Source: an uncultured Clostridia bacterium (GTDB lineage: Bacteria; Bacillota; Clostridia; Christensenellales; Aristaeellaceae). From it: DNA of 52,526 nt. Below the pieces are notes generated by a model. The model had not been told where the DNA came from. It saw nothing but the letters and a program-made list of their open reading frames with translations, and made no database searches. The position numbers and the translations under genes are program-made. This document shows positions 16,177 to 42,635 of this stretch, one piece after another (within the stretch, counting starts at the first letter, position 1; each line of letters starts with the position of its first letter). The DNA lies in the NCBI GenBank assembly GCA_937934775.1, contig CALGYL010000180.1, forward strand, positions 1 to 52,526. The letters are read 5' to 3'.

Positions 16177-16259
16177 GTGGAATCCCCTCCCGATTGTCTG
16201 TTGATCTCCCCTATTTGCGAACGGCCGCGGCGCGCTTCGCGGCCTGTTGGCACCGGTTA

Positions 16260-16417
16260 TACCAATGGAAAACATTATCACGTCCAAAGCGGCGAAGATT
16301 TTTCGATGCAGGACAAGGAGCCAAAGCGAGGCATAGCAGCGCTATGTTGAGCGGAAGGCGACACCGCTCTGCGCGAAAAAGACCGCCGCAACGACGCGTT
16401 AATGTTTGGAATTGGTA
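16260..16417 (+). mobile_element. MITE-like palindromic element, copy A (158 bp)
   Basis: Terminal inverted repeats TACCAATGGAAAACATTATCACGTC / GACGCGTTAATGTTTGGAATTGGTA. It is flanked by TTA (16257-16259) and TTA (16418-16420). The core TTTTCGATGCAGGACAAGGAGCC…CTGCGCGAAAAAGACC is shared with copies at 39543, 42043 and 19552. Confidence 0.8.
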
Positions 16418-17251
16418 TTAGCCCTTGACGGCGCCGCTCATGACGCCCGCCACCACATGCCGCTGCAGCAGTAAAAACACGGCCACAATGGGCAAAAGAC
16501 TGATCAGGAGCCCGGGCAGCGCGATGTTCCACTTGGTGGAGTACTGCCCAAACATCTGGTTGATGGCCAGCTGAATCGTCCGAAGCTTTGACGTATTCAA
16601 AAAGATCAGGGCGATTTGAAATTCGTTCCAGACCCAGAACACGTCCGAGATGATCACGGTGATGATCGTCGGCTTCATCACCGGCATGATGATCGAAAAG
16701 AACGTCCTCAGGGCGCCGCAGCCGTCGATCGTGGCCGCCTCGTCCATGTCCAGCGGGATCGCCTTGACGCCGCCGCGCATGATCAGGTAAGCCAGCGGAA
16801 AGCCGATGCCAACATAGCTCAGTATACCCGCCGCATGGGTGCCGATCAGGCCCATTTTCCGGATCACCACCACCATCGGCAGCATGATCGTGGCGAAGGG
16901 CACGAGCGCCGTGCCGGTGATGAGCTTTTCCAGCGCGGTGAACGCGCCATAGTGGTGCCGCGTGATCCAGTAGCTGCTCATCGCGGTCAAGAGCACCAAC
17001 AGCCCCACCGAGACGACGGTGATCACGCCGGTGTTGAAAAAGGCGCTCGGGAAGTTCAGCGCTTCCCATGCGCTGATATAGTTCTCCCAATGCAGGCTTA
17101 CCGGCATCGCCAGCGGATCCAGAAGGATCTGGTCCAGGGGCTTGAAGGAGTTGATTAGCGCGATGGCGAACGGCGCAAGGAACAATACGATCAACAGCGC
17201 CATAATGAGATAGATTAGCGCCTTCACAGCCAGGCTCATTCTTCCCGGCAT
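16418..17251 (-). CDS. carbohydrate ABC transporter permease (MalG-type)
   Basis: 277-aa multi-TM ORF ending in …GAVKG, the same C-terminal motif as the permease at 44014-44871. Confidence 0.9.
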   Translation of the reverse strand: MPGRMSLAVKALIYLIMALLIVLFLAPFAIALINSFKPLDQILLDPLAMPVSLHWENYISAWEALNFPSAFFNTGVITVVSVGLLVLLTAMSSYWITRHHYGAFTALEKLITGTALVPFATIMLPMVVVIRKMGLIGTHAAGILSYVGIGFPLAYLIMRGGVKAIPLDMDEAATIDGCGALRTFFSIIMPVMKPTIITVIISDVFWVWNEFQIALIFLNTSKLRTIQLAINQMFGQYSTKWNIALPGLLISLLPIVAVFLLLQRHVVAGVMSGAVKG

Positions 17252-17254
17252 CGT

Positions 17255-18121
17255 TCAGCCCTCCCTGCGGCTCGTGACGAAGCTCTGAGCCGATGTGATG
17301 GCGAACAGGATCACGAAGAACACCAGCGCTTCCGCGGTGGCGTAGCCGTAGCGGTTGTTGGAAAACGCGTCCTGATAGATCAACTGGGAGATTGAGGTGG
17401 TGGTGCCGAACGGACCGCCGCTGGTCAGGGAGACGTTGAGATCGAACATTTTGAAGGTCAGGGAGACCGTCCAGAACAGACATGTAGAAATGTAGGGCAT
17501 ACAATGGGGCAGTTTGATCTTAAAAAACGAGCGCCAGTAGCCCGCTCCGTCGATGGCGGCGGCCTCCATCAGATCCTGCGGGACGCCCGAGAGCGCCGCG
17601 ATCATCACGATCATCACAAAGCCGACGCTCTGCCAGCAGGTGACGATCACAAGCCCCCAGAAGGCGGTTGCCTCCGTGCCAAGCCACTGCTGCTGCAGAA
17701 AGGGTATGCCCAGCGCCGAACCGATCGCCGGAAAGCCCTGAATAAATACGAACTGCCAGATAAAACCCACCACGATGCCGCCCATCGTGTTGGGCAGGTA
17801 GTAGCCCGCCCGGAAGACGTTGCTGCCCCTGAGCCCGCGGGTGAGCATCTCCGCGATCAAGGTGCCCATTACGTTCACCAACACCACCGCCACCAGCGAG
17901 ATGCGGGCGGTGAACCACAGGGCGCCGTAGAATCTGCCCTTGGCAAGTAGATCGGTAAAATTGGAAAACCCCACGAAAGCCATTTGGGAGGACACGCCGT
18001 TCCACTTGGTCAGCGACAGGTAGAAGCCAATGGCGAACGGAATCACGACCATGATCAGAAGGACCAGAATCGTAGGCAGGAGAAACATCGCGCTGTCCAG
18101 CAGAAACCTGCGTCTATTCAC
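17255..18121 (-). CDS. carbohydrate ABC transporter permease (MalF-type)
   Basis: 288-aa multi-TM ORF immediately upstream of the MalG-type permease. Confidence 0.9.
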   Translation of the reverse strand: MNRRRFLLDSAMFLLPTILVLLIMVVIPFAIGFYLSLTKWNGVSSQMAFVGFSNFTDLLAKGRFYGALWFTARISLVAVVLVNVMGTLIAEMLTRGLRGSNVFRAGYYLPNTMGGIVVGFIWQFVFIQGFPAIGSALGIPFLQQQWLGTEATAFWGLVIVTCWQSVGFVMIVMIAALSGVPQDLMEAAAIDGAGYWRSFFKIKLPHCMPYISTCLFWTVSLTFKMFDLNVSLTSGGPFGTTTSISQLIYQDAFSNNRYGYATAEALVFFVILFAITSAQSFVTSRREG

Positions 18122-18219
18122 CCCGCTCTCCCCCCTCCGCTGTCCCCATTATACGATAACCCCGACCGGAGGTCTTTACAGAAACGAGGTACATTATATC
18201 AAAAAAGTGTCATTTGGAC

Positions 18220-18247
18220 TTGACAGGGATGTCAAACGTCATATAAT
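18220..18247 (+). promoter_or_regulatory. near-consensus sigma-A promoter of the AraC-family regulator gene
   Basis: TTGACA (18220-18225), 16 nt, TATAAT (18242-18247). GAGGGG (18255-18260) and ATG 18267 follow. Confidence 0.55.
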
Positions 18248-18266
18248 GGCCCATGAGGGGATGCGC

Positions 18267-19256
18267 ATGCCGAATTTCCATGAAATCATCCAGGTACCCG
18301 ATAACGCCCTCGCATGGGTGTATCTGTTCTCAGAGAACAACATTACCGAGGTCAGCCAGCACTGGCATGACAGCTTTGAATTGACGCTAATCGTCAAGGG
18401 CGCCGCCCCATACGCCATCAACGGCCGCCACATCCTGGCGGAGGCGGGGGACCTGCTGTTCATCAATGCGGGCGATATGCATAGCTGCAGCATCGAACCC
18501 GGCAATTGTGAGGCGGTCAACATCATGTTCCCCCGGCGTTTCCTCGCTCAGTTCGGCAAATCTGACGATATGATTCTGTTCCAACTGGATAAAAAGTGCA
18601 CAGCGTACCCAGAGCTTGTGCGCAGTTGTGAGAATTTGTACCACATTTTTGCCATTCGAAGGGAAGATCCTTACGCACAGCTGCACATCAACAGCATTGT
18701 TTACGATATCGCCTATCTGCTTTTTTCAAAATTCCGCTGGAACGAGTTCTCGCCCCAGTCGATCGAATCCATCAAGTACCGCCGCCGCTGCCGGGAGATC
18801 ATCGAATACCTGGACGATCACTACCAGGAAGACATCGCGCTGCGTAACATGGCCGACGCACTGGGGCTTTCCCGGGAGCATCTGGCCCGCATCTTCCGGG
18901 AATACATGGGCACGAGCTTCAAAAAATACGTCACCCGGCTCCGCATGTATCATGCCTACACGCTGCTGACCGGGAGCGATCTGCCGGTGATCGAGATCGC
19001 CATGCGCTGCGGCTTCTCAGACTGCCGCGCCTTCATCTCCAGCTTCCGGAGCATTTATGGCACGACGCCCGGAAAGTACCGGCGCACATTCTATCAGAAC
19101 GTTCAGAGCGATTTCAAGGAAGCCGTGCGCAGCGACGCGTTCTCCCGGCTGAAGGATAATAGCCTGCACAGCGTGGGCAGTCTTCCCGCGGGTGACCTGT
19201 GCGGCGCGTTCAAAGACCTACTGATACCGGCGGAAGTAGAAAAGCCTGTCCGCTGA
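18267..19256 (+). CDS. AraC-family transcriptional regulator (cupin sensor domain plus C-terminal HTH)
   Basis: C-terminal AraC HTH (…LSREHLARIFREYMGTSFKKYVTRLRMYHAYTLL…FSDCRAFISSFRSIYGTTPGKYR). The track ORF starts at 18030, inside the divergent permease gene. The promoter position supports ATG 18267 (alternative 18246). Confidence 0.85.
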   Translation: MPNFHEIIQVPDNALAWVYLFSENNITEVSQHWHDSFELTLIVKGAAPYAINGRHILAEAGDLLFINAGDMHSCSIEPGNCEAVNIMFPRRFLAQFGKSDDMILFQLDKKCTAYPELVRSCENLYHIFAIRREDPYAQLHINSIVYDIAYLLFSKFRWNEFSPQSIESIKYRRRCREIIEYLDDHYQEDIALRNMADALGLSREHLARIFREYMGTSFKKYVTRLRMYHAYTLLTGSDLPVIEIAMRCGFSDCRAFISSFRSIYGTTPGKYRRTFYQNVQSDFKEAVRSDAFSRLKDNSLHSVGSLPAGDLCGAFKDLLIPAEVEKPVR

Positions 19257-19275
19257 TTGCCGCAGAGAAAGGAAA

Positions 19276-19303
19276 ACCTGAAGGCGCGTCAGCGCCTTCA
19301 GGT
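19276..19303 (+). terminator. 12-bp perfect hairpin after the AraC gene
   Basis: ACCTGAAGGCGC-GTCA-GCGCCTTCAGGT, 20 nt after the stop, with no U-tract. The GAAGGCGCGTCAG core recurs at 19512-19530, so it may be a repeat unit rather than a dedicated terminator. Confidence 0.4.
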
Positions 19304-19337
19304 ACAGACGATCAACAAAGCCTCGTACTGTTTCATT

Positions 19338-19366
19338 CGCTTCCGGCGGCCTGCGCGCCGGAAGCG
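19338..19366. repeat. REP-like GC hairpin, copy 2 of 3
   Basis: CGCTTCCGGCG-GCCTGCG-CGCCGGAAGCG with the shared left flank …CTCGTaCTGtTTCATT…. Confidence 0.7.
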
Positions 19367-19551
19367 TGTCTCTACCGGAAGTAGCGCATACTGATGGTGG
19401 AAACAAACCAATAATTCAGTGCACCGCCCAAAAATCCGGCAAGATTTCAGGCGCACGCAGATGCTTCCTTTCGCATCAAAAATCTGCAGGACTTTTTGAT
19501 GCTCAGGGCCCGAAGGCGCGTCAGTGCCTTTGGGCATGTACTCGTTCCTCA

Positions 19552-19721
19552 TACCAGGAAAAACAATCCCTGTTCCAAAGAACCGAGGGTTTTTTGATGC
19601 GGAGCAAGGCGCCGGAGCGCGGCGATCCCGCAGGATGCTCCTCTGGCGCAAAACTCGAAGAGCGGCATCGTCCTGCGCGATAAGACCTGGCGCAGCGGCG
19701 CGCGAATGCCTCAAACTCGAA
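19552..19721 (+). mobile_element. MITE-like element, degenerate copy D (170 bp)
   Basis: Left end TACCAGGAAAAACAAT. The core GGGTTTTTTGATGCGGAGCAAGGCGCCGGAGCGCGGCGATCC…CTGCGCGATAAGACC aligns with copy C. It is flanked by TCA (19549-19551) and TCA (19722-19724). The right terminus is decayed. Confidence 0.55.
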
Positions 19722-20381
19722 TCAGCGTCCGTTTCGATTGATTACCTTGAGAATATCCTTATGTTCTCCGGCTACGATGATGTGCTCATGCGCCGTAAAT
19801 AGATGTTCGGCGCTGGTCATCGGCAGGATGTGCTTATTGTCAACGCGTATGCCGATGACGTTTATCCGATGCTCCGTGCGGACTTTCAGGTCGCGCAGGT
19901 TCTTCCCGACCCAGTCTGAAGGCGGCACAACCTCCATGATGGCATATTCGGGAGACAATTCAATATAGTCGAAGGCGCCGTGCGCGGAGAATCGGGCCGC
20001 GGTACGCCAGGCCATGTCTCGCTCCGGAGAGACCACATCGTCCGCGCCGATCTTTTTGAGCAGCCCCGCATGGATTTCCCGGTCCGCTTTCGCGACCACA
20101 TGCTTGGCGCCCTGCTCCTTAAGGAGCGAGGTAATCTCCATCGACGATTGGAAATTGTCGCTGATGCACACGAAGCACACGTCAAAATTCCGGACCCCCA
20201 ACTCGCACAGCACATCTTTGTCCATGCAATCGCCGATCTGCACCCTCGTGACAAACGGCTCCAGGCTATGCAATGCATCCTCATCCATGTCCACCAACAT
20301 GACTTCGTTGCCCAACTCGGTCAGCCTGGCCGCCAGATTTTTCCCAAAGATCCCTGCGCCAATGACCAGCATAGATCTCAT
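19722..20381 (-). CDS. trkA: TrkA/KtrA-family potassium uptake protein (RCK/NAD-binding)
   Basis: 219-aa ORF with an N-terminal Rossmann motif (VIGAGIFG). Confidence 0.9.
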   Translation of the reverse strand: MRSMLVIGAGIFGKNLAARLTELGNEVMLVDMDEDALHSLEPFVTRVQIGDCMDKDVLCELGVRNFDVCFVCISDNFQSSMEITSLLKEQGAKHVVAKADREIHAGLLKKIGADDVVSPERDMAWRTAARFSAHGAFDYIELSPEYAIMEVVPPSDWVGKNLRDLKVRTEHRINVIGIRVDNKHILPMTSAEHLFTAHEHIIVAGEHKDILKVINRNGR

Positions 20382-20405
20382 GATTCGTTTCTTCCCTTCC
20401 AGGTG

Positions 20406-21737
20406 TTACCCGACGATTATTTTACCCACCGGATTCTTCAGCTTCGATCCAAGGCTGGCTCTCGCAACCGCCAGAAATACGGTAAGGCTTCCAACGCGCC
20501 CCGCGTACATCAGCGCAATCAGCACGGATTTCGAAAGCGGCGGCAGACCGGCTGTGATTCCGGTGGTAAGTCCGACGGTACCGATGGCCGACAGGCATTC
20601 GAACGCTGCAGCCGTGAGCGTAACGCCCTCCGCGCAGAGTATCAGTACGCCGCCGATTGTCAGTAAAAGATAGATCGCCACGCCGGTATAGGCGCGCCGC
20701 AGCGTTTCGGCATCGATGCGGTGACGCCACATGGAAACGTCTTCCTGATTGCGAAAAGAGGCGAATACCGTCGCCGTGATGACCGCCAGCGTCGTCACCT
20801 TGACGCCGCCGCCCGTGCTGCCCGGCGCCGCGCCAATGAACATCAGAAGCATCGTCACGAATTTTCCGCCGTCCGATAGGGCGGCGATGTCCACCGTATT
20901 AAAGCCGGCGGTCCGGGGTGTCACCGACTGAAAAAACGCATTGAGCGCCTGATTCCCGGCGCTCATCCCCGAAAGCACCCCGTTTCGCTCGAAAAACCAG
21001 AGTATCAGCATTCCGCCCAGTATGAGCACCAGCGTTGAACACAGCACCGCGCGGGTATGCATTTTCAGCTTTCCGAAACGGAACCTGCCGTCCACAAGGT
21101 CGCTCCACACCATAAACCCGATACCGCCGATGATGATCAAAAAGGCGATGGTCAGGACCACCAAAGGGTCTCCTGAGAAGTCGACCAGAGAGGAGAGCGG
21201 CTGCCGAATGCCCATCAGATCAAACCCGGCGTTGCAGAAGGCGGATACCGAATGAAACACGCTGAACCAGATGCCCCGTTTGATGCCAAAGAGCGGAACA
21301 AACCGGATCGCCAGCAGCGCCACGCCCGAACCTTCAATGATCGCGGTTCCAATCAACGTGCGCCGGACGAGGCGCACGACGCCGCCGACCTGCGTCGAAC
21401 TGATCGCCTCCGCCAGCAGCGAACGCTCACGCAGACCGATACGCCGTCCCACCGCGAGCGAAAAAAGGATCGCGACGGTCATAAAGCCAAGCCCACCGAT
21501 CTGGATCAGCAGAAGGATTACCCCCTGCCCAAAAAACGTAAACTGCGACCATGTGTCTGCGACGACCAAGCCTGTCACGCAAGTGGCTGAAGTGGCGGTA
21601 AACAACGCGTCTAGAAAGGAAATCCCCTGTCCTCCCCGGCTGGCGATGGGCAGCCAAAGGAGAATGCCACCAAATAGGATCATCAGCGCAAATCCAACCG
21701 CGAGGATCCGCGTCGCGCTCCAGTGCTTTTCAAGCAT
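20406..21737 (-). CDS. trkH: TrkH/KtrB-family potassium transporter
   Basis: 443-aa polytopic membrane ORF with repeated selectivity-filter-like segments (CNAGF, TAGFN, GSTGGGVK, GTVGL) typical of Trk/Ktr channels. Immediately upstream of trkA. Confidence 0.9.
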   Translation of the reverse strand: MLEKHWSATRILAVGFALMILFGGILLWLPIASRGGQGISFLDALFTATSATCVTGLVVADTWSQFTFFGQGVILLLIQIGGLGFMTVAILFSLAVGRRIGLRERSLLAEAISSTQVGGVVRLVRRTLIGTAIIEGSGVALLAIRFVPLFGIKRGIWFSVFHSVSAFCNAGFDLMGIRQPLSSLVDFSGDPLVVLTIAFLIIIGGIGFMVWSDLVDGRFRFGKLKMHTRAVLCSTLVLILGGMLILWFFERNGVLSGMSAGNQALNAFFQSVTPRTAGFNTVDIAALSDGGKFVTMLLMFIGAAPGSTGGGVKVTTLAVITATVFASFRNQEDVSMWRHRIDAETLRRAYTGVAIYLLLTIGGVLILCAEGVTLTAAAFECLSAIGTVGLTTGITAGLPPLSKSVLIALMYAGRVGSLTVFLAVARASLGSKLKNPVGKIIVG

Positions 21738-22196
21738 CCGTCGTCATCTCCATAACCCTCAAGCACCAGATGCCCGTCGACATCGATACCCTTAACAGGA
21801 TTTTTACCTTTCGGCGCATGAGTATGGCCCGCGCATTCACGGCGCATCAAAAACCACTCTGCGCGTCTCATCCCAAACCATAAAACAGTCTTCCGGGCAA
21901 GTTCACTGTCTCTGCGTTTGCACATTGTCCGGGGCCGCTTGCCTCGGCTGCCGAACCGCAGCCCAATTTCTGACGCCCACCGATGCAAAACCACAAGTTT
22001 CGAATGAATTTGAATTGTTGCATTATGCATTTTAGCATATCGGCCCGAATCGGCAAGGCATTGTTGTGGATTCACCGGTGTTATATTTTCATGAAGCGCG
22101 ACTTTTGCCTGATTATAGCCATTTTTTAGCAAAAAGGCTGCTACAACCAATGCTTATCCCTCTCCGAACCAGCGAATTATTTCGAATTAATGTACA

Positions 22197-22225
22197 TTGA
22201 CAATCGCTTCAACAAGTTGTATAAT
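22197..22225 (+). promoter_or_regulatory. consensus sigma-A promoter upstream of oadG/oadB-like genes
   Basis: TTGACA (22197-22202), 17 nt, TATAAT (22220-22225). A leader of about 135 nt follows before the ATG at 22365. Confidence 0.55.
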
Positions 22226-22364
22226 GCACACGTTTTTTATGATATCGGTCGGCGGGAGACAACCAAATCCTTTAGGCTCTCTGTCTTATATTTGGATTCA
22301 CCGTACCCTTGCGGGTGTGATACTTTTCGTCTATACAAGATGATTTAAGGAGAGGGAGAGGACA

Positions 22365-22496
22365 ATGGGATTCGGAGAAGGTGTCCTGGTGGCTCTGTTT
22401 GTGATGTCTCTGGTATTTGTACTTCTGGCGGTGATTTACGCACTGGTCAAACTGGTTTCGACGGTCATTCAACGCTACTTCAGCAAGGCTGCCTAG
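22365..22496 (+). CDS. small membrane protein, OadG-like gamma subunit of a Na+-translocating decarboxylase
   Basis: 43-codon ORF below the track cutoff: MGFGEGVLVALFVMSLVFVLLAVIYALVKLVSTVIQRYFSKAA. The RBS AAGGAGAGGGAGAGG is upstream. A single TM helix directly ahead of the beta subunit matches the usual OadG/MmdD arrangement. Confidence 0.6.
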   Translation: MGFGEGVLVALFVMSLVFVLLAVIYALVKLVSTVIQRYFSKAA

Positions 22497-22536
22497 GCAA
22501 AAACGTGCGGCGCGCGCCGCGGAAAGGACAGAAGTC

Positions 22537-23682
22537 ATGTTTGCACACGCGCTTCAAAAAATTCTGACGGATTCGGGATTCGCAGCGCTAACCTGGCAGC
22601 ATCTGCTCATGATCACGATTTCCTGCGTGCTGATCTACCTCGCGATCGGGAAGAAATTCGAACCCCTGCTGCTGCTGCCAATCTCATTTGGCATGCTGCT
22701 GGCGAATCTGCCGCTTGCAAACCTCATGGGAGCACCTAGCGGGGAAGAAGCAGGCGGGCTGCTCTACTACCTGTACCAGGGCGTGAAACTGGGCATCTAC
22801 CCATCGCTGATCTTCCTGGGGATCGGCGCGATGACCGACTTTGGGCCGCTGCTGGCACGGCCTTCGAGCCTTTTCATGGGCGCGGGCGCGCAGTTCGGCA
22901 TCGTGGTGGCGTTCCTGATCGCGCTGCTCCTCGGCTTCAATCCGAAGGAAGCCTCCTCCATCGGCATCATTGGCGGCGCGGACGGCCCGACCGCCATCTA
23001 CCTGACCACGCGGCTTGCGCCGCACCTCCTGCCCGCGATCGCGATCGCGGCCTACTCCTACATGGCGCTGATCCCGCTGATTCAGCCGCCGCTGATGCGC
23101 CTTCTGACCACGCAAAAAGAGCGCGAGATCAAGATGGAGCAAATGCGCGATGTCTCCAAACTCGAGAAAATCTGCTTCCCGATCGTGGTGACGGTGTTCT
23201 GCACGCTGCTTCTGCCCGCGGTCGCGCCACTGATCGGCATGCTGATGCTGGGCAACCTCTTCCGGGAATCGGGTGTGGCGGAACGGCTCTCCTCCACCGC
23301 GCAGAACGCGCTGATCAACATCGTGACCATCTTCCTGGGCGTCACCGTCGGCGCGACCGCGAAGGCCGAGACCTTCCTGGACATTCATACCCTTGCGATC
23401 ATTTTCTTAGGCCTCGTGGCATTTATGTTCAGCACGGTGGGCGGGCTTCTTCTGGGCAAGCTGATGTGCTGGCTGTCCGGCGGCAAGGTAAACCCCCTGA
23501 TTGGCTCGGCAGGCGTTTCCGCGGTGCCGATGGCCGCCCGCGTGTCGCAGATCGAGGGCCAGAAGGCGAACCCCGGCAACTACCTTCTAATGTACGCGAT
23601 GGGACCCAACGTGGCGGGCGTAATCGGCTCCGCCATCGCGGCGGGCGTGCTGCTGTCGCTGTTCCAAAACTGGGTGGGCTGA
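22537..23682 (+). CDS. oadB: Na+-translocating decarboxylase beta subunit (OadB/MmdB/GcdB family)
   Basis: 381-aa polytopic ORF with sequence character typical of OadB-family proteins (…FEPLLLLPISFGMLLANLP…, …GIIGGADGPTAIY…). Confidence 0.85.
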   Translation: MFAHALQKILTDSGFAALTWQHLLMITISCVLIYLAIGKKFEPLLLLPISFGMLLANLPLANLMGAPSGEEAGGLLYYLYQGVKLGIYPSLIFLGIGAMTDFGPLLARPSSLFMGAGAQFGIVVAFLIALLLGFNPKEASSIGIIGGADGPTAIYLTTRLAPHLLPAIAIAAYSYMALIPLIQPPLMRLLTTQKEREIKMEQMRDVSKLEKICFPIVVTVFCTLLLPAVAPLIGMLMLGNLFRESGVAERLSSTAQNALINIVTIFLGVTVGATAKAETFLDIHTLAIIFLGLVAFMFSTVGGLLLGKLMCWLSGGKVNPLIGSAGVSAVPMAARVSQIEGQKANPGNYLLMYAMGPNVAGVIGSAIAAGVLLSLFQNWVG

Positions 23683-24165
23683 CAAAGGCGGTTTTCGATA
23701 CGGCAGGGACTTTCCAGTCCCTGTTCCGAAGCCTTCCCCCCGGCAGGCCGCCGGTTATCACCGCGGCCTGAATAGACGCATTGGAACCGCGGTCACACTT
23801 CATGGGGCGATGGAATCTCGCATCTCCGGCATCATCTCCGCCCCTTGTGCCACCGCCGCCGCGCCGTCCGAAGTGATTATTTCCCTTACGGATCATCCGG
23901 AAGCCTTGGCAAATGCGCATACCGCAAGCATAATGCTCCCAGATCGGCAAGAAGCCAGTTTTCGGAACGCTGAAGCGTTTGCCCGTCCGGCATGTGCCCC
24001 AACGCGAATGTATGTTTATAAGGGGCTGTCGCGCGAATGAAAAACCGAACAAGAAACCGACCTTCTGTGCGCTCACAAAGGTCGGTTTCCTGTACAAACT
24101 GACTCTAAAAATCATTAGCGCGACAGCCGCCGGACCATCGGCAAAACCTCGTTCTGCTTCATTCC

Positions 24166-24190
24166 CTTCCGGCGACCCGTGCGCCGGAAG
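24166..24190. repeat. REP-like GC hairpin, copy 3 of 3
   Basis: CTTCCGGCG-ACCCGTG-CGCCGGAAG with the same left flank (…CTCGTTCTGCTTCATT…) as copy 2. Confidence 0.65.
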
Positions 24191-24240
24191 CGTGTTTCAC
24201 CAGCAGCAACACACACTGGTGGTAGAAACAGCATTAGGGT

Positions 24241-24393
24241 AATACCGCACAAATGAGGTGGTGTGATGGGGCGCGGATTTTTTGTCAAATGCAAGAGCAA
24301 ATGTTGAAGGTTTACTGGCGGTAAATCAAGATGTTTGCAAGCGGCAGATGGTGGAAAATCAGCCGTCAGCGCGCCGCCGAATTGTGCGGTATT
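24241..24393. repeat. nested palindromic element bounded by a 12-bp perfect inverted repeat
   Basis: AATACCGCACAA (24241-24252) and TTGTGCGGTATT (24382-24393). The interior GGATTTTTTGTCAAATGCAAGAGC loosely resembles the MITE core. It interrupts a repeat unit that is uninterrupted at 19380-19530. Confidence 0.5.
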
Positions 24394-24537
24394 GCCTTAG
24401 CATTCGGTGTGTCCCCAGAAACCCCGCAGAATTTCAGGCGCGTGCAGAACTACCCCCTCGCATCAAAATGCCAAATGGGGTTTTCAATACCCAGGGGACG
24501 GCGTAAGCCGCCCCCTGGGCGAATGGGCGGCGCGCTG

Positions 24538-25297: not shown

Positions 25298-25343
25298 TAT
25301 ATCATAGTATTCAGATATGAAAAAAGATATTGGAGCGATGCAC

Positions 25344-26498: not shown

Positions 26499-26500
26499 GC

Positions 26501-33874: not shown

Positions 33875-33884
33875 GAAAAACAAA

Positions 33885-33929: not shown

Positions 33930-33958
33930 GCAATGATCGATTGAATGGAGGTGGCTGT

Positions 33959-34300: not shown

Positions 34301-34314
34301 AGGGAGGCGCACAC

Positions 34315-35226: not shown

Positions 35227-35339
35227 AACGCCAGATAAAACACTTCGCTTTGTTCACAGCGTCCGCCGGAAAAGCCGACGGGGCGCGAACAAGCGAAGCG
35301 GTTCAAAGAAACAGCCGATGGATCTGAAAGGAGATTTCA

Positions 35340-35549
35340 ATGAGCGATTGGACAGAGACCGGATTCTCCACCCGAAGCGTACCCGCCGGAAAGGGCGTGG
35401 ACGAGGGCGGCAGCGCGACCCGCAGGCCCATCATCACGGCCAACGGTTACCGTCTGCCCTACGTCCCGTCCGCGCTGAACTGGAGCGACGCCGACGCGCT
35501 GCTCTATACCCGCAATGCCGGCGCGAACCAACTGTACTTGTGCTGCTGA
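35340..35549 (+). CDS. hypothetical small protein (69 aa) ending in Cys-Cys
   Basis: Strong RBS AAAGGAGA 7 nt before the ATG. G/C-rich third positions like neighbouring genes. I recognise no family. MSDWTETGFSTRSV…LPYVPSALNWSDADALLYTRNAGANQLYLCC. Confidence 0.5.
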   Translation: MSDWTETGFSTRSVPAGKGVDEGGSATRRPIITANGYRLPYVPSALNWSDADALLYTRNAGANQLYLCC

Positions 35550-35694
35550 ATGCCGGCCATGCGCTGGAAGAAGAGGTTGGCTTCCACCCTGGAGACAGAG
35601 AGATACCCGATCGTCAACAATGAGAAGGTCGGCCTGCTTGATCCACCTTATACGGGCTTGGGAGCGAAATGATACCTTCCTTTTCTCCCGACCG

Positions 35695-37146
35695 CTATTC
35701 TCTATGCCTGTTTTGCATCCGTACTCTATCCCTGGGCTTCAGGTACCCGAGCCTTTCCGTTTCCAAGTCGGACCGGTTAATCAGCGTCGTGTTGAAATCA
35801 TGCCAGTGGAACGGAGCCCAGGGCGACATGTAGGGGGTCCCAAAGCTGTTGAGCGAAACCAACTCGATGGCGATGGCTGTCAAAAAAACGGTAAAGCCGA
35901 AAAAACCCAGCGCCCCGGTGAACATGATCAGCGCGAACTTCAAGATTCGGAACGGGTTGATCAGCGTATAGTCCGGAATCGCGAAGGAGGCCAGGAGCGA
36001 TACGGCCGCGATGGTCAGAAGCACCGGGCTGAAAAACCCCGCCGCGATGGCGGACTGGCCGATCACGATGGCGCCCACGATGCCGATGGCCGGACCGATC
36101 TGTTTGGGCACCCGGACGAGCGCCTCCCGGAGCAATTCCACGATGAATTCCAGGATCAGCGCACCCACCATCGCGCTGAAGGGCACGTTGGCGCGCAACT
36201 GCGCCAGCGAAATGGCATAATCGCTGGGCAGGACTTCGGTGTGGAAAGAGGTGATGGCGACGAAGATGCTGGACGCGGTCAGCGCGGTCGCGATGGACAT
36301 ATACCGGAGCAGCCGGTTGAACATCCCGAAGTACTTGTTGTCGTACCGGTCGTCGCAAGAATAAAAGAATTCGCTGAAAACCTTGGGCGCGTACAGCGCG
36401 ATGCCGCTGCCGTCTGCCAGCACCATAACCTTGCCTTCCAGGAGTGTCGAGTACGCCATGTCCGATCGCTCGATCAGGCCCATCTGAGGAAAGAGTATCT
36501 TGTTGTCATTGAGCAGGAAGGCCTGCAGTTCGCCAGATTCGCCGATGCCATCCACGCGAATATCCCCGATGCGTTTGAGCACCTCGTTCACGGCAGTGTC
36601 GTTTGCGATGTCCTGAATATAGAGCACCGCCACGCGGGTCCGGGTCCTCACGCCCACCTCCATGTACCGGATGCGCAGGTTTGGGTCCTTGACCCGGTAC
36701 CGGACCAGCGACAGGTTTGCGTCCAGGTTCTCGGTAAAGCAGTCTTGCCCGCCGCGGACGGTGTAGGTCAACTGCGGCGTAGGCACCGACCGTTTTTCCA
36801 CCTTCTTCTGATTGATGACGAGGTAGCTCTCGTCGGTTGAAAACATAAGTACCGCCATGCCGGATAGGATGAACTCCTGAATCCTGGCCCAATCCGTCTC
36901 CACCTTGGCCGAGTCGGCGTAGAGAATGCCGTCCAGCGCCTCCTGCGCGGTCAGCCGCGCCCGGCCGGAGGCGCACGCCAGGACCAATGGCTTGACAACG
37001 TTTTCCGAGAGCGCCAGCCTGTCGGTGAGCTGCTGGATGTACATCAGCTCCGCCCTGCCGCCCCGGTAGGGAACGGAGCGCCTAGTGATGTCCAGATCGC
37101 CCGTCTGGATGGAATCGATCCATCGTTCAAATTCTCCGTGCCTCAT
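35695..37146 (-). CDS. gerA: spore germination protein, GerA/GerKA family (A subunit)
   Basis: The ORF is open from 37179; ATG 37146 follows GAAGGAGAGGA. GerAA-family character, with a C-terminal membrane domain. Confidence 0.85.
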   Translation of the reverse strand: MRHGEFERWIDSIQTGDLDITRRSVPYRGGRAELMYIQQLTDRLALSENVVKPLVLACASGRARLTAQEALDGILYADSAKVETDWARIQEFILSGMAVLMFSTDESYLVINQKKVEKRSVPTPQLTYTVRGGQDCFTENLDANLSLVRYRVKDPNLRIRYMEVGVRTRTRVAVLYIQDIANDTAVNEVLKRIGDIRVDGIGESGELQAFLLNDNKILFPQMGLIERSDMAYSTLLEGKVMVLADGSGIALYAPKVFSEFFYSCDDRYDNKYFGMFNRLLRYMSIATALTASSIFVAITSFHTEVLPSDYAISLAQLRANVPFSAMVGALILEFIVELLREALVRVPKQIGPAIGIVGAIVIGQSAIAAGFFSPVLLTIAAVSLLASFAIPDYTLINPFRILKFALIMFTGALGFFGFTVFLTAIAIELVSLNSFGTPYMSPWAPFHWHDFNTTLINRSDLETERLGYLKPRDRVRMQNRHRE

Positions 37147-37159
37147 GGCATCCTCTCCT

Positions 37160-38293
37160 TCACTGAAGATGATCCACACTGTAGTCCATCATGTAGGTCG
37201 ATTTCAGGTTCACCTTTACCTCCGGCGTGATGGCCGCCCGGGTGAAGGCCTCGTTCCAATCCATCGAATCCGCGATCACCGGATAAGCAACGCGGAACGC
37301 ATCGTCCAATTGCAGGTAATCCGTATGGAACGTCGTCTGAGCCTGATAGATCGCGTCCCGCACGTCCTGATCGATCCTCTGCGTCAGCATGTCTGTCATC
37401 GCCTTGTTGTCCGCGTCATTGAAACCGTACGGAAGCTTCTTGTCGCCGTACTCCAGCGTGGCGTCGAAATTCAGCGAAATTTTGAAGGCGGGCGCGCCGT
37501 TTTCGTAAAATGCCTGGATCGTCCGCTTGGTCAAGTCGGCCTCCACCGTGTATTGAACGCCGTTGAACGGAATGATGTACATGGATTTTGCGTTGTCCGT
37601 CTTCAGAATGTTCAAGCCCTTGCACGCCTCGATGGGAATAAAGCCGATCACCCTGGTATCGTTGACCACGGAATACCCCGTCAACGCAATCTCCTGCTCC
37701 TGCAGGCCGACGCAGGGGATCAGGATGCCGGTGTACGAGTCGCTCAGGTTTTCGAGCAGCCGCGACGTGGTCCGGGAAAATCCTTCTCCGGACGATTCTA
37801 AAGTCGTCAGTGTGTTTTCCGCCGAATAGCCGAGGGACAGGTTTTGATCTTTCATTGCTTTAAAAAGGTCGTCCAGATCGTCCCGGGTGACGAGGGTAAT
37901 CACCTTTTTGCGATAGGTCTCGTCCGCCCGGAGCCTGTACAGGTATTCCAGCAGGTGCTCCCTGGCGAAATTCTCGGTGACCAGCAGCGTTCGCACTCCG
38001 CTGATGTACAGCGGCATATCCAGCTGCCGGTTCAGATTTTGCCGGGCTTCGGCCAGCGTCCTTCCATGACCTTTCAGCAAAAAGTACTTCGGGGACGTGC
38101 CACCGCCGCTGCCGGTACCGCTCTGGCCCGCTTGAATGTTGGCGAACTCCACGTAGAACCAAAATTCCCCGTCCCGGCTGTCCACGGCAATCGTGGTGGC
38201 GATCAGCTTTTTATTGATATCCTTCGAGTCTCCCATGGCGGCGAACGCGGCCGTGAGCAGCACCAGCAGAATCAGCAGCGCGAGCTTGACCAC
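37160..38293 (-). CDS. gerC: germinant receptor C subunit (Ger(x)C family)
   Basis: 377-aa ORF with an N-terminal hydrophobic signal. …KLIATTIAVDSRDGEFWFYVEFAN… matches the Ger(x)C N-domain pattern. GTG start. Confidence 0.8.
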   Translation of the reverse strand: MVKLALLILLVLLTAAFAAMGDSKDINKKLIATTIAVDSRDGEFWFYVEFANIQAGQSGTGSGGGTSPKYFLLKGHGRTLAEARQNLNRQLDMPLYISGVRTLLVTENFAREHLLEYLYRLRADETYRKKVITLVTRDDLDDLFKAMKDQNLSLGYSAENTLTTLESSGEGFSRTTSRLLENLSDSYTGILIPCVGLQEQEIALTGYSVVNDTRVIGFIPIEACKGLNILKTDNAKSMYIIPFNGVQYTVEADLTKRTIQAFYENGAPAFKISLNFDATLEYGDKKLPYGFNDADNKAMTDMLTQRIDQDVRDAIYQAQTTFHTDYLQLDDAFRVAYPVIADSMDWNEAFTRAAITPEVKVNLKSTYMMDYSVDHLQ

Positions 38294-38313
38294 GCGGCTT
38301 ATGCCTTGATTCT

Positions 38314-39399
38314 TCAGGGCGCATCACCCCGCTTTCCCTTGACCATAGCCAGAATGAGCAGCGTTCCCGGAAGAAGGATGCTGGAGACCAGCACCAGGTA
38401 GGGTGCGCAGGCATCCAATACTTCGGAGATGTTCTTGATGCCCAGCGCGAACATGCACAGCGTGTAGAGCACAACGCTGCAGACGAGCGTAATGATATGG
38501 CGTCCAACCTTGGAGAACAGCTTGCAGGCAAATTCCAGTATGGCCAGGAACACCATGATCATGCCGGCAAACAGGCTCGTAAGGCCCACGGTAAGGTAGA
38601 AGATGTCAGGCCGCTCGATGATGGGAATGTTGACGACCTTGATCGCCTCGATGAACGCGTCGCTGTAGAAGGCCGTGTTGTTGATGCCCAGAATGGATAT
38701 GGTGCTGTCCACAATCAGCACATACAAAAGCCCGATGAACACAAGCGTCAAAAAGGCCACCCGCGCGGCTCTCTTGTTGCATTTGGCAAATGGCACGATC
38801 AAGAGCACCTCGATGCCGCCGTAGGGGAATAAAAGCTTGGGGATTGCGGCCGGTAAATCCTTGAATTTATCCGGGTTGATCAGCGGCCGGATGTTGTAGA
38901 TCATGCCCTGGGGCAGCATGATGGCGCAAATCGATATCGTGGTCAACAGAAAGGCGAACCCATACAGCTCAAAGAGCCGGGCTACGTTGGTGATGCCCTT
39001 GAAGGATACGAAGGCGAACAGCGCCACACTGACGGCCAGCATGACAGCCTGCGGCGTCTTGGGCAGAAAGTTCGAGGACAGGAAGTTGACCAACCGGAGC
39101 TTCAAATAGACGCCAACCACTATAAAGTAAAGGATGTAGTAAACAGCGATCAGGCGGGAGGCCAGTTTGCCGGCAATCTCCTGGCTGTAGTCGAACATCA
39201 CCTTGCCCCGAAAACGGTTGTTCAGCGACGCGATCGCCGCGGCGGCAAGCCCGAATACCAGCGCTACCGCCAACACCAACATCCAACCGTTCCGCCCCGC
39301 AGATTGCGCCACGATCTTGGGTAAATCGACGGAGGTGTAGGAGGTGAGGATCAGGATGAGAATGAAGAACATCTGCCGGTTTGTGATGCTGTTCGCCAA
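38314..39399 (-). CDS. gerB: germinant receptor B subunit (spore germination amino-acid-permease-like)
   Basis: 361-aa polytopic ORF with the N-terminal …ITNRQMFFILILIL… typical of GerAB/GerKB. TTG start. Confidence 0.85.
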   Translation of the reverse strand: MANSITNRQMFFILILILTSYTSVDLPKIVAQSAGRNGWMLVLAVALVFGLAAAAIASLNNRFRGKVMFDYSQEIAGKLASRLIAVYYILYFIVVGVYLKLRLVNFLSSNFLPKTPQAVMLAVSVALFAFVSFKGITNVARLFELYGFAFLLTTISICAIMLPQGMIYNIRPLINPDKFKDLPAAIPKLLFPYGGIEVLLIVPFAKCNKRAARVAFLTLVFIGLLYVLIVDSTISILGINNTAFYSDAFIEAIKVVNIPIIERPDIFYLTVGLTSLFAGMIMVFLAILEFACKLFSKVGRHIITLVCSVVLYTLCMFALGIKNISEVLDACAPYLVLVSSILLPGTLLILAMVKGKRGDAP

Positions 39400-39420
39400 T
39401 CTCTCTGTTCACTCCCAACT

Positions 39421-39450
39421 CTTTTTTGGGTATTATCGCCACCTTTTCTA
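39421..39450 (-). promoter_or_regulatory. possible forespore (sigma-G/F-type) promoter of the ger operon
   Basis: On the minus strand: TGAATA, 17 nt, GATAATA, about 20 nt upstream of the gerB start. It resembles the B. subtilis sigma-G consensus (GAATA / CATnnTA). The match is weak. Confidence 0.3.
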
Positions 39451-39542
39451 GCATTATTCAGGAATCTCCGGGTGAAGCTTTCGGCGAAGATGGGATCGCC
39501 GCAGTGTTCTCATACAAATGTAACATGAATCATACCAATGAA

Positions 39543-39690
39543 GCGTATTATTTACCCCAAAGGGACGAGGAATTTTCGATGCAGAACAAGGAGCCGGAGC
39601 GAGGAATAGCAGCGCTATTTTGAGCGGAAGGCGACATGGTTCTGCGCGAAAATAACCGGCGTTACGAGTGATTCATGTTTGGAATTCGTA
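39543..39690 (+). mobile_element. MITE-like palindromic element, copy B (148 bp)
   Basis: Ends TACCAATGAAGCG… / …GGAATTCGTA. Flanked by TCA (39540-39542) and TCA (39691-39693). The core TTTTCGATGCAGAACAAGGAGCCGGAGCGAGGAATAGCAGCGCTATTTTGAGCGGAAGGCGACA is nearly identical to copy A. Confidence 0.8.
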
Positions 39691-39769
39691 TCAATGCCGC
39701 GAGCCCAGGCAGGCGGCGCTACGCGGAGTTGTCCGTTCCTTTGCGTCGTTCCTTTGCGGCTGTTTTATC

Positions 39770-41866
39770 TCAATCAGCCTTCACCATACTAAGCCCGATT
39801 TTACCACGCGCCTTGTCGATGGTCACAACCCACACGGTCACCGTGTCGCCGACCGAAACGACGTCGCTTGGGTGACGGATAAAGCGATTCGCCATTTTCG
39901 AGATGTGGACCAATCCGTCCTGCTTCACCCCGATGTCCACGAACGCGCCAAAGTCCACAACGTTACGGACGGTTCCTGTCAGTTCCATTCCGATCGTCAA
40001 ATCGTCAAGTGATTTCACGGCGCGGCTGAAAATTACGGGCGGCGCGTCGTCACGCGGGTCGCGTCCGGGCTTTTTGATTTCCGCGATAATGTCTCGAAGC
40101 GTTGGCAACCCTGCGCCAAGCTCTTTCGCCAGCGCGGAAACGTCCTCTATTTCGCCGCGTTTCATGACTTCCCGCGCAAGTTCGTAGCTTTCGGGATGAA
40201 CGCCTGTGTTGTCGAGCAGCTCCCTGCCGCCTCGAATGCGCAGGAAACCCGCACATTGCTTGAACGCCTTGTCGCCGAGCTTCGGCACTTTCTTGAGCTG
40301 CCTGCGGTCGGTAAACGCGCCGTTTGCCTCACGGTAGGCGACGACATTCTTCGCGACCGCCGCGCCAATGCCCGCGACATAGCCGAGCAAACTCGCGCTT
40401 GCGGTGTTCAGGTCGACGCCGACGCGGTTCACGACGTTCTCAACCGCCCCGGTCAGCGCGGTATCAAGCGCGGTTTGGTTGAGGTCGTGCTGATATTGCC
40501 CCACGCCCATGGATTTCGGCGGGATTTTCACAAGCTCCGCAAGCGGGTCCTGAAGCCTCCGCCCAAGGGACATCGCGCCGCGCGTCGTCACGTCAAGGTC
40601 GGGGTATTCCTCGCTGGCAAGTTTGGACGCGGAGTATACCGAGGCGCCCGCCTCGCCCACGATCGTATATTGAATTTCTCGCCCTGATTTTTGAATAAAA
40701 CCCGCGATGACTTCTTCCGTTTCCCGGCTCGCCGTTCCATTGCCAAGAACGATTACGTTGATATCGTACTTCCTGCAATAGTTTTCAAGCGCGCGCTCCG
40801 TCCCCGCGATGTCGGTCTTTGGCGGCGTGGGGTAGATTGTCGTAAAGTCAAGGAGTTTCCCGAACTCGTCCAAAACCGCGACTTTGCAGCCCGTTCGGTA
40901 TCCTGGATCGATTGCGATAATCCTCGCGTCCTTGACGGGGCGGACAGAGAGCAAATTTTCCGTGTTCCTGGCGAATACCTTAATCGCCTCCGTTTGCGCC
41001 CGTTCCGTGAGGTCGCGGCGCGTCTCGCGCTCCAATGCCGGCGCGATAAGCCGCTTGTAGCTGTCGGCCAGCGTAATTTTCAGCAGGTCCGTAAATATAC
41101 TCTGTCCCGTGATCACACGGCGCTCAAGTATGGTGGCGGCCTGCTCCGCGGGTGTGTCAACCTTGATTTTCAGCTTTTCCTCGCTCTCGCCGCGATTGAT
41201 GGCCAAAATCCGGTGATTCGGGATTTTTGCAAGCGGCTCGTTGAAGCAGTAATATGCTTCGTAAACGGTCTTTTCGTCCTTGTCGGCAGCTTCGCTGACG
41301 ATCACGCCGCGGGAACGCGTGAAATTCCGAAGTTCGGCGGTAATCTCCGCGTCATCGGCAACTTGCTCTGCGATAATATCACACGCGCCTTGTAACGCGG
41401 TTTCGGCAGACGGAAAGCCGCCGTCCGCACAGATGTACTGCTCCGCGAGTTTCAGCGGTTCACCACTTTGGAGCTTCTGCTTCAGGATGAGCACTGCCAG
41501 CGGTCCCAAACCCGCATCTTTCGCCTTGCTTGCGCGGGTAGCGCGCTTCTTTCTGAACGGCTTATATAAATCCTCGACGCGTTGCAGCGCTTCGGCTTTC
41601 TCAATTTCCGATTGCAATTCCGGCGTGAGCTTTCCCTGCTCGTCAATCAGGCGGATTGCTTCCGCTTTCCGCGCTTCAAGGTTTTTAAGGTATGTCAGCC
41701 GCTCGTCAAGATCGCGAAGTGTCACATCGTCAATGCCGCCCGTCGCCTCTTTGCGGTAGCGGGCGATGAACGGTATCGTGTTGCCGTCCTCAATCAGCCC
41801 AACCGTTGCCGCGACCTGCGCCGCGGACAGCTTGAACTCAGATGCAAGTACTTGTTGTATATTCAA
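39770..41866 (-). CDS. tex: Tex-like transcription accessory protein (YqgF/HhH/S1 domains)
   Basis: …FIARYRKEATGG…, and a C-terminal S1 domain …GTVRNVVDFGAFVDIG…GLVHISKMA…. The ORF is open from 41935, but TTG 41866 is preceded by AGGTGGTGGA and gives the usual (M)NIQQVLASEF start. Confidence 0.9.
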   Translation of the reverse strand: MNIQQVLASEFKLSAAQVAATVGLIEDGNTIPFIARYRKEATGGIDDVTLRDLDERLTYLKNLEARKAEAIRLIDEQGKLTPELQSEIEKAEALQRVEDLYKPFRKKRATRASKAKDAGLGPLAVLILKQKLQSGEPLKLAEQYICADGGFPSAETALQGACDIIAEQVADDAEITAELRNFTRSRGVIVSEAADKDEKTVYEAYYCFNEPLAKIPNHRILAINRGESEEKLKIKVDTPAEQAATILERRVITGQSIFTDLLKITLADSYKRLIAPALERETRRDLTERAQTEAIKVFARNTENLLSVRPVKDARIIAIDPGYRTGCKVAVLDEFGKLLDFTTIYPTPPKTDIAGTERALENYCRKYDINVIVLGNGTASRETEEVIAGFIQKSGREIQYTIVGEAGASVYSASKLASEEYPDLDVTTRGAMSLGRRLQDPLAELVKIPPKSMGVGQYQHDLNQTALDTALTGAVENVVNRVGVDLNTASASLLGYVAGIGAAVAKNVVAYREANGAFTDRRQLKKVPKLGDKAFKQCAGFLRIRGGRELLDNTGVHPESYELAREVMKRGEIEDVSALAKELGAGLPTLRDIIAEIKKPGRDPRDDAPPVIFSRAVKSLDDLTIGMELTGTVRNVVDFGAFVDIGVKQDGLVHISKMANRFIRHPSDVVSVGDTVTVWVVTIDKARGKIGLSMVKAD

Positions 41867-41880
41867 AATCTTTCCACCAC

Positions 41881-42039
41881 CTATTTGTTGCTTTCGGACG
41901 GCAATATGGAAGGCAAGCCGCTGATGGCAAGCCACGCTTTCAGTTCTTCGCGGGTCAGGCGATTCAACTTGATGCCACGAAGTTCATACGCTGTGTCTCT
42001 GACGTCAAGATACGTTTCGCCTTTTGGCAGGCCGTGCAT
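41881..42039 (-). CDS. possible small ORF (52 aa) or 3' remnant of a gene split by MITE copy C
   Basis: MHGLPKGETYLDVRDTAYELRGIKLNRLTREELKAWLAISGLPSILPSESNK. It looks protein-like but has no SD, and its ATG is 3 nt from the MITE end. The in-frame upstream stop is the MITE target-site duplication. Confidence 0.25.
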   Translation of the reverse strand: MHGLPKGETYLDVRDTAYELRGIKLNRLTREELKAWLAISGLPSILPSESNK

Positions 42040-42042
42040 TTA

Positions 42043-42229
42043 TACCAATGCGAAATAGTAACGCATCCAAAGCGCCGAGGGATTTTTGATGCAGCGCAAG
42101 GAGCTGGAGCGAGGCGACCCTTCGGGATACGCCTTCGGCGTGAAATGCAGCGCTACGCTCGAGCGGAAAGCGACACAGCGATGCGCGAAAAGACCCGGCA
42201 CAACGATGCGTTAATGTTTCAAGTTGGTA
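42043..42229 (+). mobile_element. MITE-like palindromic element, copy C (187 bp)
   Basis: TIRs TACCAATGCGAAATAGTAACGCATC / GATGCGTTAATGTTTCAAGTTGGTA. Flanked by TTA (42040-42042) and TTA (42230-42232). Same core as A and B, plus an internal insertion of about 30 nt. Confidence 0.8.
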
Positions 42230-42635
42230 TTACAATAACAGACAAGCGTCACTTCCATACGCGCATTCTCCGATGATTTTACCAGTACCCGCTTCCCCGT
42301 TCCGAAGTCGAGTTCGCCGTCTGCGCCTCGTCAATCCCCCGTGACCAACTTGAGGATGATATTAAAACACATCCCAACGGCGAAAGCGCTCACCAACGGG
42401 GTCAGGCACAGGAAAGAGGAAGTCCGTAACCACCCCAAGCAAAGTATAGCACTTCCTGGGCAAGAGATGCAAATCAAAATGTCTTCCTGGGATACTCGCA
42501 ATCCGCCAGACATTTGCCTTTGCTGTACAGGGCCACGCCAGCGCGGGGTTCACGTACGACCGGTACCTCCACTTTTTCGAAGGAGAGATCGGTGACACGA
42601 TAAGGCAGGCCTTTGGGCCGTGAGCAAAACCGAGA

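Follow-up and report, generated by a model that had tools for sequence, protein, structure and literature searches.

Four short repeats in a 52,526-nucleotide stretch of DNA from an uncultured Clostridia bacterium (contig CALGYL010000180.1, positions 1 to 52,526; hereafter the window) raise the question of whether they are mobile elements and, if so, which enzyme moves them. They had been predicted from the sequence to be an undescribed family of MITEs (miniature transposable elements bounded by inverted repeats), with four copies, A to D, in the same orientation. Direct reading, alignment and an nhmmer scan of the window, its profile derived from the four copies, place all of them on the plus strand, far beyond chance, with E-values of 3e-54 to 1e-43, and no fifth copy is present in the window, the remaining profile matches being no better than E 0.25. 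Copies A (16260–16417), D (19552–19721) and C (42043–42229) occupy the positions originally assigned to them, while copy B starts at 39533 (TACCAATGAAGCG...) and not at 39543, a difference of 10 bp, and extends to 39690. Copy B is thus 158 bp long and the copies range from 158 to 187 bp, the upper end of the predicted range of 148–187 bp being correct and the lower end not. Copies A and B represent the short form of 158 bp, copy C the long form of 187 bp, and copy D (170 bp) is decayed, its centre having been replaced and its right end reading ...CTCGAA. The terminal inverted repeats quoted for copy A are exact, and folding confirms that every copy forms one long hairpin on either strand, copy A reaching −66.9 kcal/mol (z −7.7) on the plus strand and −62.0 kcal/mol (z −5.7) on the minus strand. 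The best overall explanation, to which a probability of about 0.6 is assigned, is that the repeats are a foldback MITE that an IS630/Tc1-mariner-family DDE transposase moves and that survives at stop codons.

The mobility of the repeats is most directly recorded in their flanks. As originally described, each copy is bracketed by a direct trinucleotide repeat: TTA/TTA at copy A (16257–16259 and 16418–16420), TCA/TCA at copy D (19549–19551 and 19722–19724), TCA/TCA at copy B (39530–39532 and 39691–39693), which only the corrected start of this copy fits, and TTA/TTA at copy C (42040–42042 and 42230–42232). The left repeats of A and D are read on the plus strand; their right repeats, read on the minus strand, are the TAA stop codon of a 277-amino-acid permease and the TGA stop codon of trkA (219 amino acids), respectively. 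The counts given here and below rest on 66 non-redundant full-length copies from metagenome-assembled genomes (MAGs) of related Bacillota/Oscillospiraceae and from metagenomes, individual loci being designated by L numbers. In 44 of the 66 copies the trinucleotides on the two sides are the same (TTA 19, TCA 17, TGA 5, TAA 2 and TTG 1), and 43 of these 44 are of the TNA type. T-N-A is found on both sides of 51 copies, whose centres agree in 43 cases, where base frequencies would give about 37%. Within a single subfamily the trinucleotide differs between copies (TCA in L010 and L025, TTA in L006 and L024), so the trinucleotide belongs to the target and not to the element. A paralogous empty site is provided by the copy at L019:4049–4234, which interrupts a repeat of a second family (family 2). 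Five intact family-2 repeats are exactly 3 nt shorter across the junction, and taking out TAC...GTA plus one TCA restores the repeat length, whereas a model with a 2-bp TA duplication leaves 5 extra nt. Together, the identical flanks and the empty site establish the flanking trinucleotides as true 3-bp TNA target duplications of fixed length, as the original prediction held. The repeats are very probably a mobile, non-autonomous foldback transposon, that is a MITE, that generates a 3-bp duplication.

Related loci compared at the positions of the window copies point the same way, though less cleanly. The L150 locus (74% amino-acid identity) displays the same permease–permease–binding protein–GH3 operon without copy A, the permease gene there terminating at the equivalent codon in one TAA; it is the only close relative of the permease, and its spacer has diverged. 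The tex relatives L043 and L044 lack both B and C, and their homology to the window ends at ...GGCATTGA|T, which is the right edge of B, one flank of this comparison not being syntenic. This edge (window 39687–39693) is a synteny breakpoint, where L043:4900–4910 and L044 match the window to ...GGCATTGAT and then continue into different genes, and it suggests a rearrangement at or through the element. In a 93%-identical contig of run X20, the segment 41885–42377 including copy C is replaced by 69 other bases, and an orthologous copy of C is present in L045. In L042, which carries an identical trkA (L042:803–1013 against window 19291–19724), copy D is reduced to a 17-nt stub of its right end (TGCGAGTTTGAGGCATT), which shows the decay of D by internal deletion. 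L042 excepted, every contig whose permease, TrkA or Ger protein is identical either has A and D or is broken within B, and the Logan contigs of four DNA runs contained no joint skipping A or D. The tex ORF of the window itself has no entry among the recorded proteins.

The element is 158 bp long, or 186 to about 260 bp when optional hairpin modules are present, and its termini are TAC(C/T)AAT...ATT(G/A)GTA. It is short, multi-copy and non-coding, with inverted termini and no conserved open reading frame (ORF). A 14-codon ATG...TGA ORF in the core (MQxKEPERGxAALx) was considered and rejected, as its variable codons change in a stem-compensating and not in a synonymous manner and the long form shifts the frame. 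Within a one-genome-per-species collection the core pattern identified 32 loci in about seven MAGs, comprising five MAGs labelled 'Bacillota bacterium OH_*', an Oscillospiraceae MAG and a contig that is probably mis-binned. The core 18-mer identified 76 metagenome loci, about 45 of them carrying the element; roughly 30 of those metagenome loci lie in Ga0268263, where a relative is approximately 84–87% identical to the window over the overlapping parts. The genome from which the window derives is not among the source genomes of the core-pattern loci; its contigs are found in wastewater, bioreactor-sludge and sediment runs, and the nearest tex genes are those of OH_CDB_134 and OH_CDB_90 (93% protein identity). 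Four copies per 52.5 kb in the window, together with 5–8 loci in each of several MAGs as found with strict exact patterns, indicate a copy number of at least tens per genome. The description of the family as undescribed is upheld by database and literature searches. In Rfam 15 no match was found over the whole window at gathering thresholds, nor for copy C at E <= 10; the plasmid collection searched with copy A returned nothing; the core 17-mer was not found in the full-text papers searched, and no description was found under IS630 with TNA or under MITE with stop codon. This MITE family is new, and it is abundant in an uncultured, Oscillospiraceae-like lineage of high-G+C Clostridia of digesters and wastewater, the G+C content of the window being 60%.

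A candidate autonomous partner was found when the collected loci were scanned de novo for the pattern TNA-TAC...GTA-TNA at long spacing. The segment L101:251–1362 is a 1.1-kb insertion sequence (IS) with TAA/TAA flanks and two overlapping ORFs containing helix-turn-helix (HTH) and DDE_3 domains, which scores 132 bits against the NCBIfam family NF033545 ('IS630 family transposase') and 1e-21 against PF13358. Its DDE half retrieves 80 loci; most of them belong to MAGs of Oscillospiraceae, Ruminococcus and Faecousia, and two OH_* MAGs and two isolates are included. The members of this group (L174–L253, for example L190:901–2029, L211:895–2023 and L248:912–2034) are approximately 1.1 kb long and encode the transposase in two overlapping frames. 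They thus resemble IS630/Tc1-mariner elements such as ISY100 and IS630 in domain composition, size and frame arrangement, and similarly in their short inverted repeats and in the TA that lies directly outside the C at each end. Unlike those elements, the distinct ISs with both ends placed display TAC...GTA ends in 35 of 35 cases and T-N-A on both flanks, which the search did not require, again in 35 of 35. Plasmid-borne IS630 relatives are at most 42% identical and were left out as a control.

The termini TACTAATT.CCAA…GTA are common to this IS630 group and the MITE. The IS end consensus reads TACTAATTTC(C/T)AAT(A/T)AAAA and the reverse complement of the MITE right end TACTAATTCCAAACATTAATGC, the shorter forms of the same ends being TACTAATTTCCAAT and TACTAATTCCAAAC, respectively. 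The two are identical over their first 8 nt and, shifted by 1 nt, have 12 of 13 positions in common, while in the best single pair 19 of 24 positions agree; the mean best identity at the right end is 14.1 of 20 compared with 11.7 for shuffles. TCCAAA is nearly invariant at positions 24–29 of the MITE left arm as well. The MITE therefore has ends like those of ISs that encode an IS630-family DDE transposase. The central bases of the IS flanks match in 18 of 35 cases, about 10.5 being expected, and the IS flanks taken with the MITE data argue for a 3-bp duplication over a 2-bp TA duplication. This hints that the IS630 group of Oscillospiraceae/Ruminococcus may generate a 3-bp rather than a TA duplication. 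As judged from these shared ends and flanks, an IS630-family enzyme probably moves the MITE in trans.

The position of the copies relative to genes is strongly biased. In 29 of the 66 copies (44%) the duplication coincides with a TAA or TGA that terminates an ORF of at least 100 codons, as in the window for copy A at the permease gene and copy D at trkA. The expectation is 8.6% when all TAA/TGA triplets of these loci are considered (P 2e-14) and 12.9% when stop codons are counted among non-disruptive TNA sites (P 5e-10). The gene reads into the right end of the element in 25 of the 29 cases and into the left end in 4. Neighbouring genes were called by GC3 (G+C content at third codon positions) in place of crude ORF-based calls, which were too noisy, and with these calls the gene beyond the element runs in the same direction in 15 of the 23 stop-codon cases. 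Several left flanks display a stop codon followed by GGAGG, which indicates that many copies are intercistronic. Of the 35 related ISs only 4 are located at stop codons of this kind, and the duplication regenerates the stop codon, so the excess is read as survival and not as targeting. Read on the plus strand of the element, 36 of 43 perfect TNA duplications have a pyrimidine at their centre, equally at stop codons (19:3) and elsewhere (17:4), and no centre bias is displayed by the symmetric ISs (10:8). Copies away from stop codons are unoriented relative to the neighbouring gene, 12 pointing towards it and 10 away. The polarity seems to be tied to the target base pair. As stop codons are TRA, both the right-end gene bias and the common orientation of the window copies beside minus-strand genes would follow. 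The MITE ends are asymmetric at positions 8–12 (GGAGA on the left, TCCAA on the right), and this asymmetry may cause the polarity.

The arms of the element (about positions 14–45) change completely among subfamilies while retaining complementarity, and the termini and a core of roughly 70 nt are nearly invariant, even in divergent subfamilies from other metagenomes. The core, GATGCAG..CAAGGAGCCGGAGCGAGGCG-[hairpin]-TTGAGCGGA(A/G)(G/A)GCGACA...CTGCGCGAAAAG, is more conserved than the inverted repeats and is purine-rich on both sides of the fold; it is therefore not palindromic, and the element has a defined strand. The apical hairpin covaries (CGTAGC/GCTACG, CATAGC/GCTATG, AATAGC/GCTATT and GCGCAGC/GCTGCGC). 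Two optional modules occur in several arm subfamilies: an insert of 28 nt with two C(UUCG)G hairpins, also found in copy C, and an insert of roughly 70 nt with two further covarying hairpins. The 47 short copies have 95.0% of their cells paired compared with 84.3% in shuffles, changes on both sides in 22 of 40 pairs and a covariation score of 0.343 against 0.150; the observed values were reached by 0 of 500 shuffles, and slid controls pair only 25–47%. The original prediction had set covariation, as a sign of conserved structured RNA genes, against mobility; the covariation is indeed strong, but it does not overturn mobility, and the two properties hold together. Complementary changes in the arms are expected if both ends must fit one transposase, which does not account for the apical hairpin or the modules. 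The core must matter for propagation or as structured RNA or single-stranded DNA. Promoter and terminator scans gave nothing convincing, and no U-tail follows the full hairpin.

The ~70-nt module follows ...GGCGACACAG and its hairpins are GATTCAAA..TTTGAATC and TTGGTTTCCC..GGGAAACCAA. It is found in the copies L031:7442–7701, L027:1009–1269, L023:6561–6791, L110:2656–2884, L015:4795–5021 and L011:849–1056, those of L031 and L027 carrying it together with the UUCG module. Divergent subfamilies that keep the TACCA termini and the core but have wholly different arms were seen at L075:2093–2300, L079:~930–1100, L084, L113/L139/L144/L108 and L101:1390–1540, the last of which sits 60 bp from the IS630-family IS of that locus.

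Other transposases may be considered against the IS630-family enzyme. The original prediction pointed to a DDE partner of the IS5 family (IS1031-like) or of the PIF/Harbinger type, and the 3-bp TNA duplication confirmed here is the one a MITE derived from the IS1031 group of IS5 or from Harbinger would display. Duplications of 3-bp TNA/TWA are typical of IS5 (IS1031-like) and PIF/Harbinger elements, not of IS630. However, about 1 Mb of related DNA, scanned with profiles and de novo for inverted repeats, revealed no IS5/Harbinger element with these ends and no isolated end, and the only autonomous elements found to share both the termini and the T-N-A flanks belong to the IS630 family (Tc1/mariner-like); a partner of the predicted type is thus unlikely. 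IS1031-group ends begin with GAG and not with TAC. A canonical IS630 transposition appears more doubtful still. The element would then be C(C/T)AAT...ATT(G/A)G, the duplication TA, and T-N-A part of a strong 8-bp target preference (TNATATNA). TA is duplicated by every characterised IS630/Tc1-mariner element (PMC2170065), and the flanks of the 35 ISs, with T and A invariant and the centre matching in barely more than half, do resemble a target preference. In contrast, the MITE centres match directly far more often than they would if independent, and in the paralogous empty site the length is restored only without TAC...GTA and 3 nt, the difference being 3 nt and not 5. In the orthologue L150 the TAA is followed by G+C-rich sequence and not by TAATATAA, and an all-A/T octamer with matching centres would be very rare at 60% G+C, yet nearly half of the copies lie on stop codons.

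The conserved fold invites two further explanations, both of them very improbable. If the repeats were a multi-copy structured RNA gene or a cis-regulatory RNA that selection maintains at gene ends, and were not mobile, the strong covariation and the near-invariance of the core across species would be natural, and the C(UUCG)G loops and optional hairpin modules do resemble the expansion segments of structured RNAs. On the plus strand G.U cells also exceed A.C cells, 145 to 32, but this excess stems from few columns (22 with any G.U against 17 with any A.C), so that it is suggestive of the functional strand by cells only. Moreover, the plus strand is antisense to the neighbouring gene in 25 of the 29 stop-codon copies, and the search of Rfam, even at E <= 10, gave no match. 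The variable centres of the target duplications, the paralogous empty site, the presence or absence of copies among relatives and the IS-like termini all speak against an RNA gene. Least probable is that the element is a hairpin of the REP/REPIN type, mobilised by a RAYT or by an IS200/IS605-type single-strand (HUH) transposase. Such an origin would account for the hairpin, the gene-end position and the orientation bias: the whole element is a hairpin, its central hairpin CGTAGC-AGC-GCTACG contains GTAG/CTAC, and the four window copies lie on one strand with strong polarity. HUH transposition, however, proceeds without target duplication, and here a 3-bp duplication with a variable centre is observed. 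REP/REPIN elements further have a GTAG/CTAC head that is conserved and a RAYT gene associated with them, whereas the GTAG hairpin covaries to CATAGC, AATAGC and GCAGC, leaving no fixed recognition motif. In addition, the ends match a DDE IS family, and the copies outside stop codons lack orientation towards the neighbouring gene.

Several points weigh against transposition by an IS630/Tc1-mariner enzyme with survival at stop codons. Among the orthologous loci there was no clean empty site at which the two flanks could both be aligned base by base, the spacers being too diverged. No IS630-type gene, the only transposase type searched for by tblastn, was detected in the window, in line with the original statement that it encodes no transposase, or in about 1 Mb of MITE-bearing loci. 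An ends-only profile run over about 1 Mb of related loci picked up neither solo ends nor ends at long spacing. None of the ISs found matches the MITE arms over its entire inverted repeat, the similarity being limited to the ~13 terminal nt apart from the best pair. The IS centres match in only 18 of 35 cases, the mismatches being assumed to reflect recombination between 1.1-kb copies or chimeric short-read contigs. Characterised IS630/Tc1-mariner elements duplicate TA and not 3 bp (PMC2170065), so the model needs an IS630 group with a 3-bp stagger, which would be unusual. That the excess at stop codons is due to selection is what we infer from the comparison with the ISs. Finally, transcription of the element was not observed, the two low-share RNA runs with their undirected contigs being uninformative.

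Under the preferred explanation, an IS630/Tc1-mariner DDE transposase would move the MITE in trans, as judged from the shared terminal 8–13 nt and the T-N-A flanks. Insertion at TNA duplicates 3 bp and thereby regenerates the target, so that an insertion at TAA or TGA would leave the gene intact. In a gene-dense genome of 60% G+C, copies would survive at stop codons and in 3' spacers, which would account for the 44% located precisely at a stop codon, and a 158-bp hairpin without a U-tail would be tolerated where a 1.1-kb IS is not. Lying mostly between co-directional genes, the copies would presumably be co-transcribed as a long intercistronic hairpin without a U-tail. If this is true, the stop-codon-regenerating duplication lets a transposon settle inside tightly packed operons, and tens of intercistronic junctions per genome carrying the same 158-nt hairpin constitute a natural experiment on operon expression. 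An IS630/Tc1-mariner group with a 3-bp TNA stagger, and a MITE whose central target base has a built-in polarity, would likewise bear on the way such transposases read and bend their targets.

A more far-reaching extension of this explanation is put forward tentatively. The IS630-like ends could be a chassis and the conserved, modular structured RNA or single-stranded DNA a payload that is placed on stop codons and intercistronic junctions, the partner being the first IS630/Tc1-mariner group found to make 3-bp TNA and not TA duplications. The payload would comprise the purine-rich internal loops, the covarying apical hairpin and the optional UUCG-capped and other hairpins. With its fixed polarity it might act on its neighbours, through mRNA processing or stability, translational coupling or antisense control, or might be needed for transposition. 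The core is better conserved than the transposase-binding ends across species of digester and termite-gut-type metagenomes, which, if true, would make it an undescribed functional RNA or DNA module. What is distinctive beyond an ordinary MITE is the residence at stop codons, the central-base polarity, the conservation of the core above the ends and the modular hairpins.

Several known systems come close to this family. RUP (repeat unit of pneumococcus) is a MITE thought to be moved by IS630-Spn1. Like RUP and IS630-derived MITEs, the element is a short, non-coding Firmicute repeat with IS630-like inverted ends, tens of copies per genome, a hairpin fold and presumed mobilisation in trans. It differs from RUP in duplicating 3 bp (TNA) and not the TA that is the rule for IS630/Tc1-mariner (PMC2170065). 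The non-palindromic purine-rich core conserved above the ends, the modules, the frequent stop-codon association and the centre polarity likewise distinguish it from RUP. With Tourist-type MITEs (PIF/Harbinger) and the IS1031 group of the IS5 family it has in common the 3-bp TNA/TWA duplication and the foldback architecture; unlike these, its TAC... termini match the IS630 group, and no IS5-type element with such ends was seen. Correia/NEMIS, ERIC, REP/BIME and the Bacillus cereus bcr1 repeats are intergenic hairpins that are often co-transcribed and can affect mRNA processing or stability. The element resembles them as an intergenic hairpin repeat at gene 3' ends or between cistrons, but it has no sequence relation to them, its duplication is of another kind, and the stop codon itself is the duplicated target. 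Small bacterial mobile repeats have been reviewed (PMC2229807).

In the window, copy A lies in a minus-strand operon between an ABC permease gene (16418–17251) and a solute-binding protein gene that starts at 16176. Copy D is located between a convergent AraC-type gene (18267–19256, plus strand) and trkA (19722–20381, minus strand). Copies B and C flank tex (39770–41935, minus strand): B lies 79 bp downstream of it and upstream of a spore-germination permease gene (38314–39399, minus strand), and C lies 108 bp upstream of the tex start. The spacer of ~540 bp from copy C to the upstream gene of 409 amino acids (window 42233–42771) contains no long ORF and is partly kept in L045 (window 42318–42483, 73% identity).

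Family 2, the repeat interrupted in L019, is represented in the window by a repeat of about 220 bp with several internal hairpins on the minus strand at 19291–19510, about 40 bp from copy D, and by partial copies at 24138–24231 plus 24402–24493 and at 7729–7816, all on the minus strand. It has 46 matches in roughly 1 Mb of related loci, often beside or under the MITE; the depth of Logan contigs rises across it, and it has no Rfam match at gathering thresholds. Together with a third small element, the MITE and family 2 fragment assemblies of uncultured digester Clostridia, and these repeats should be masked or modelled in annotation. The third element (window 24241–24394, minus strand, about 154 bp) has 12-nt inverted ends, AATACCGCACAA...TTGTGCGGTATT, and interrupts the family-2 copy at 24138–24493.

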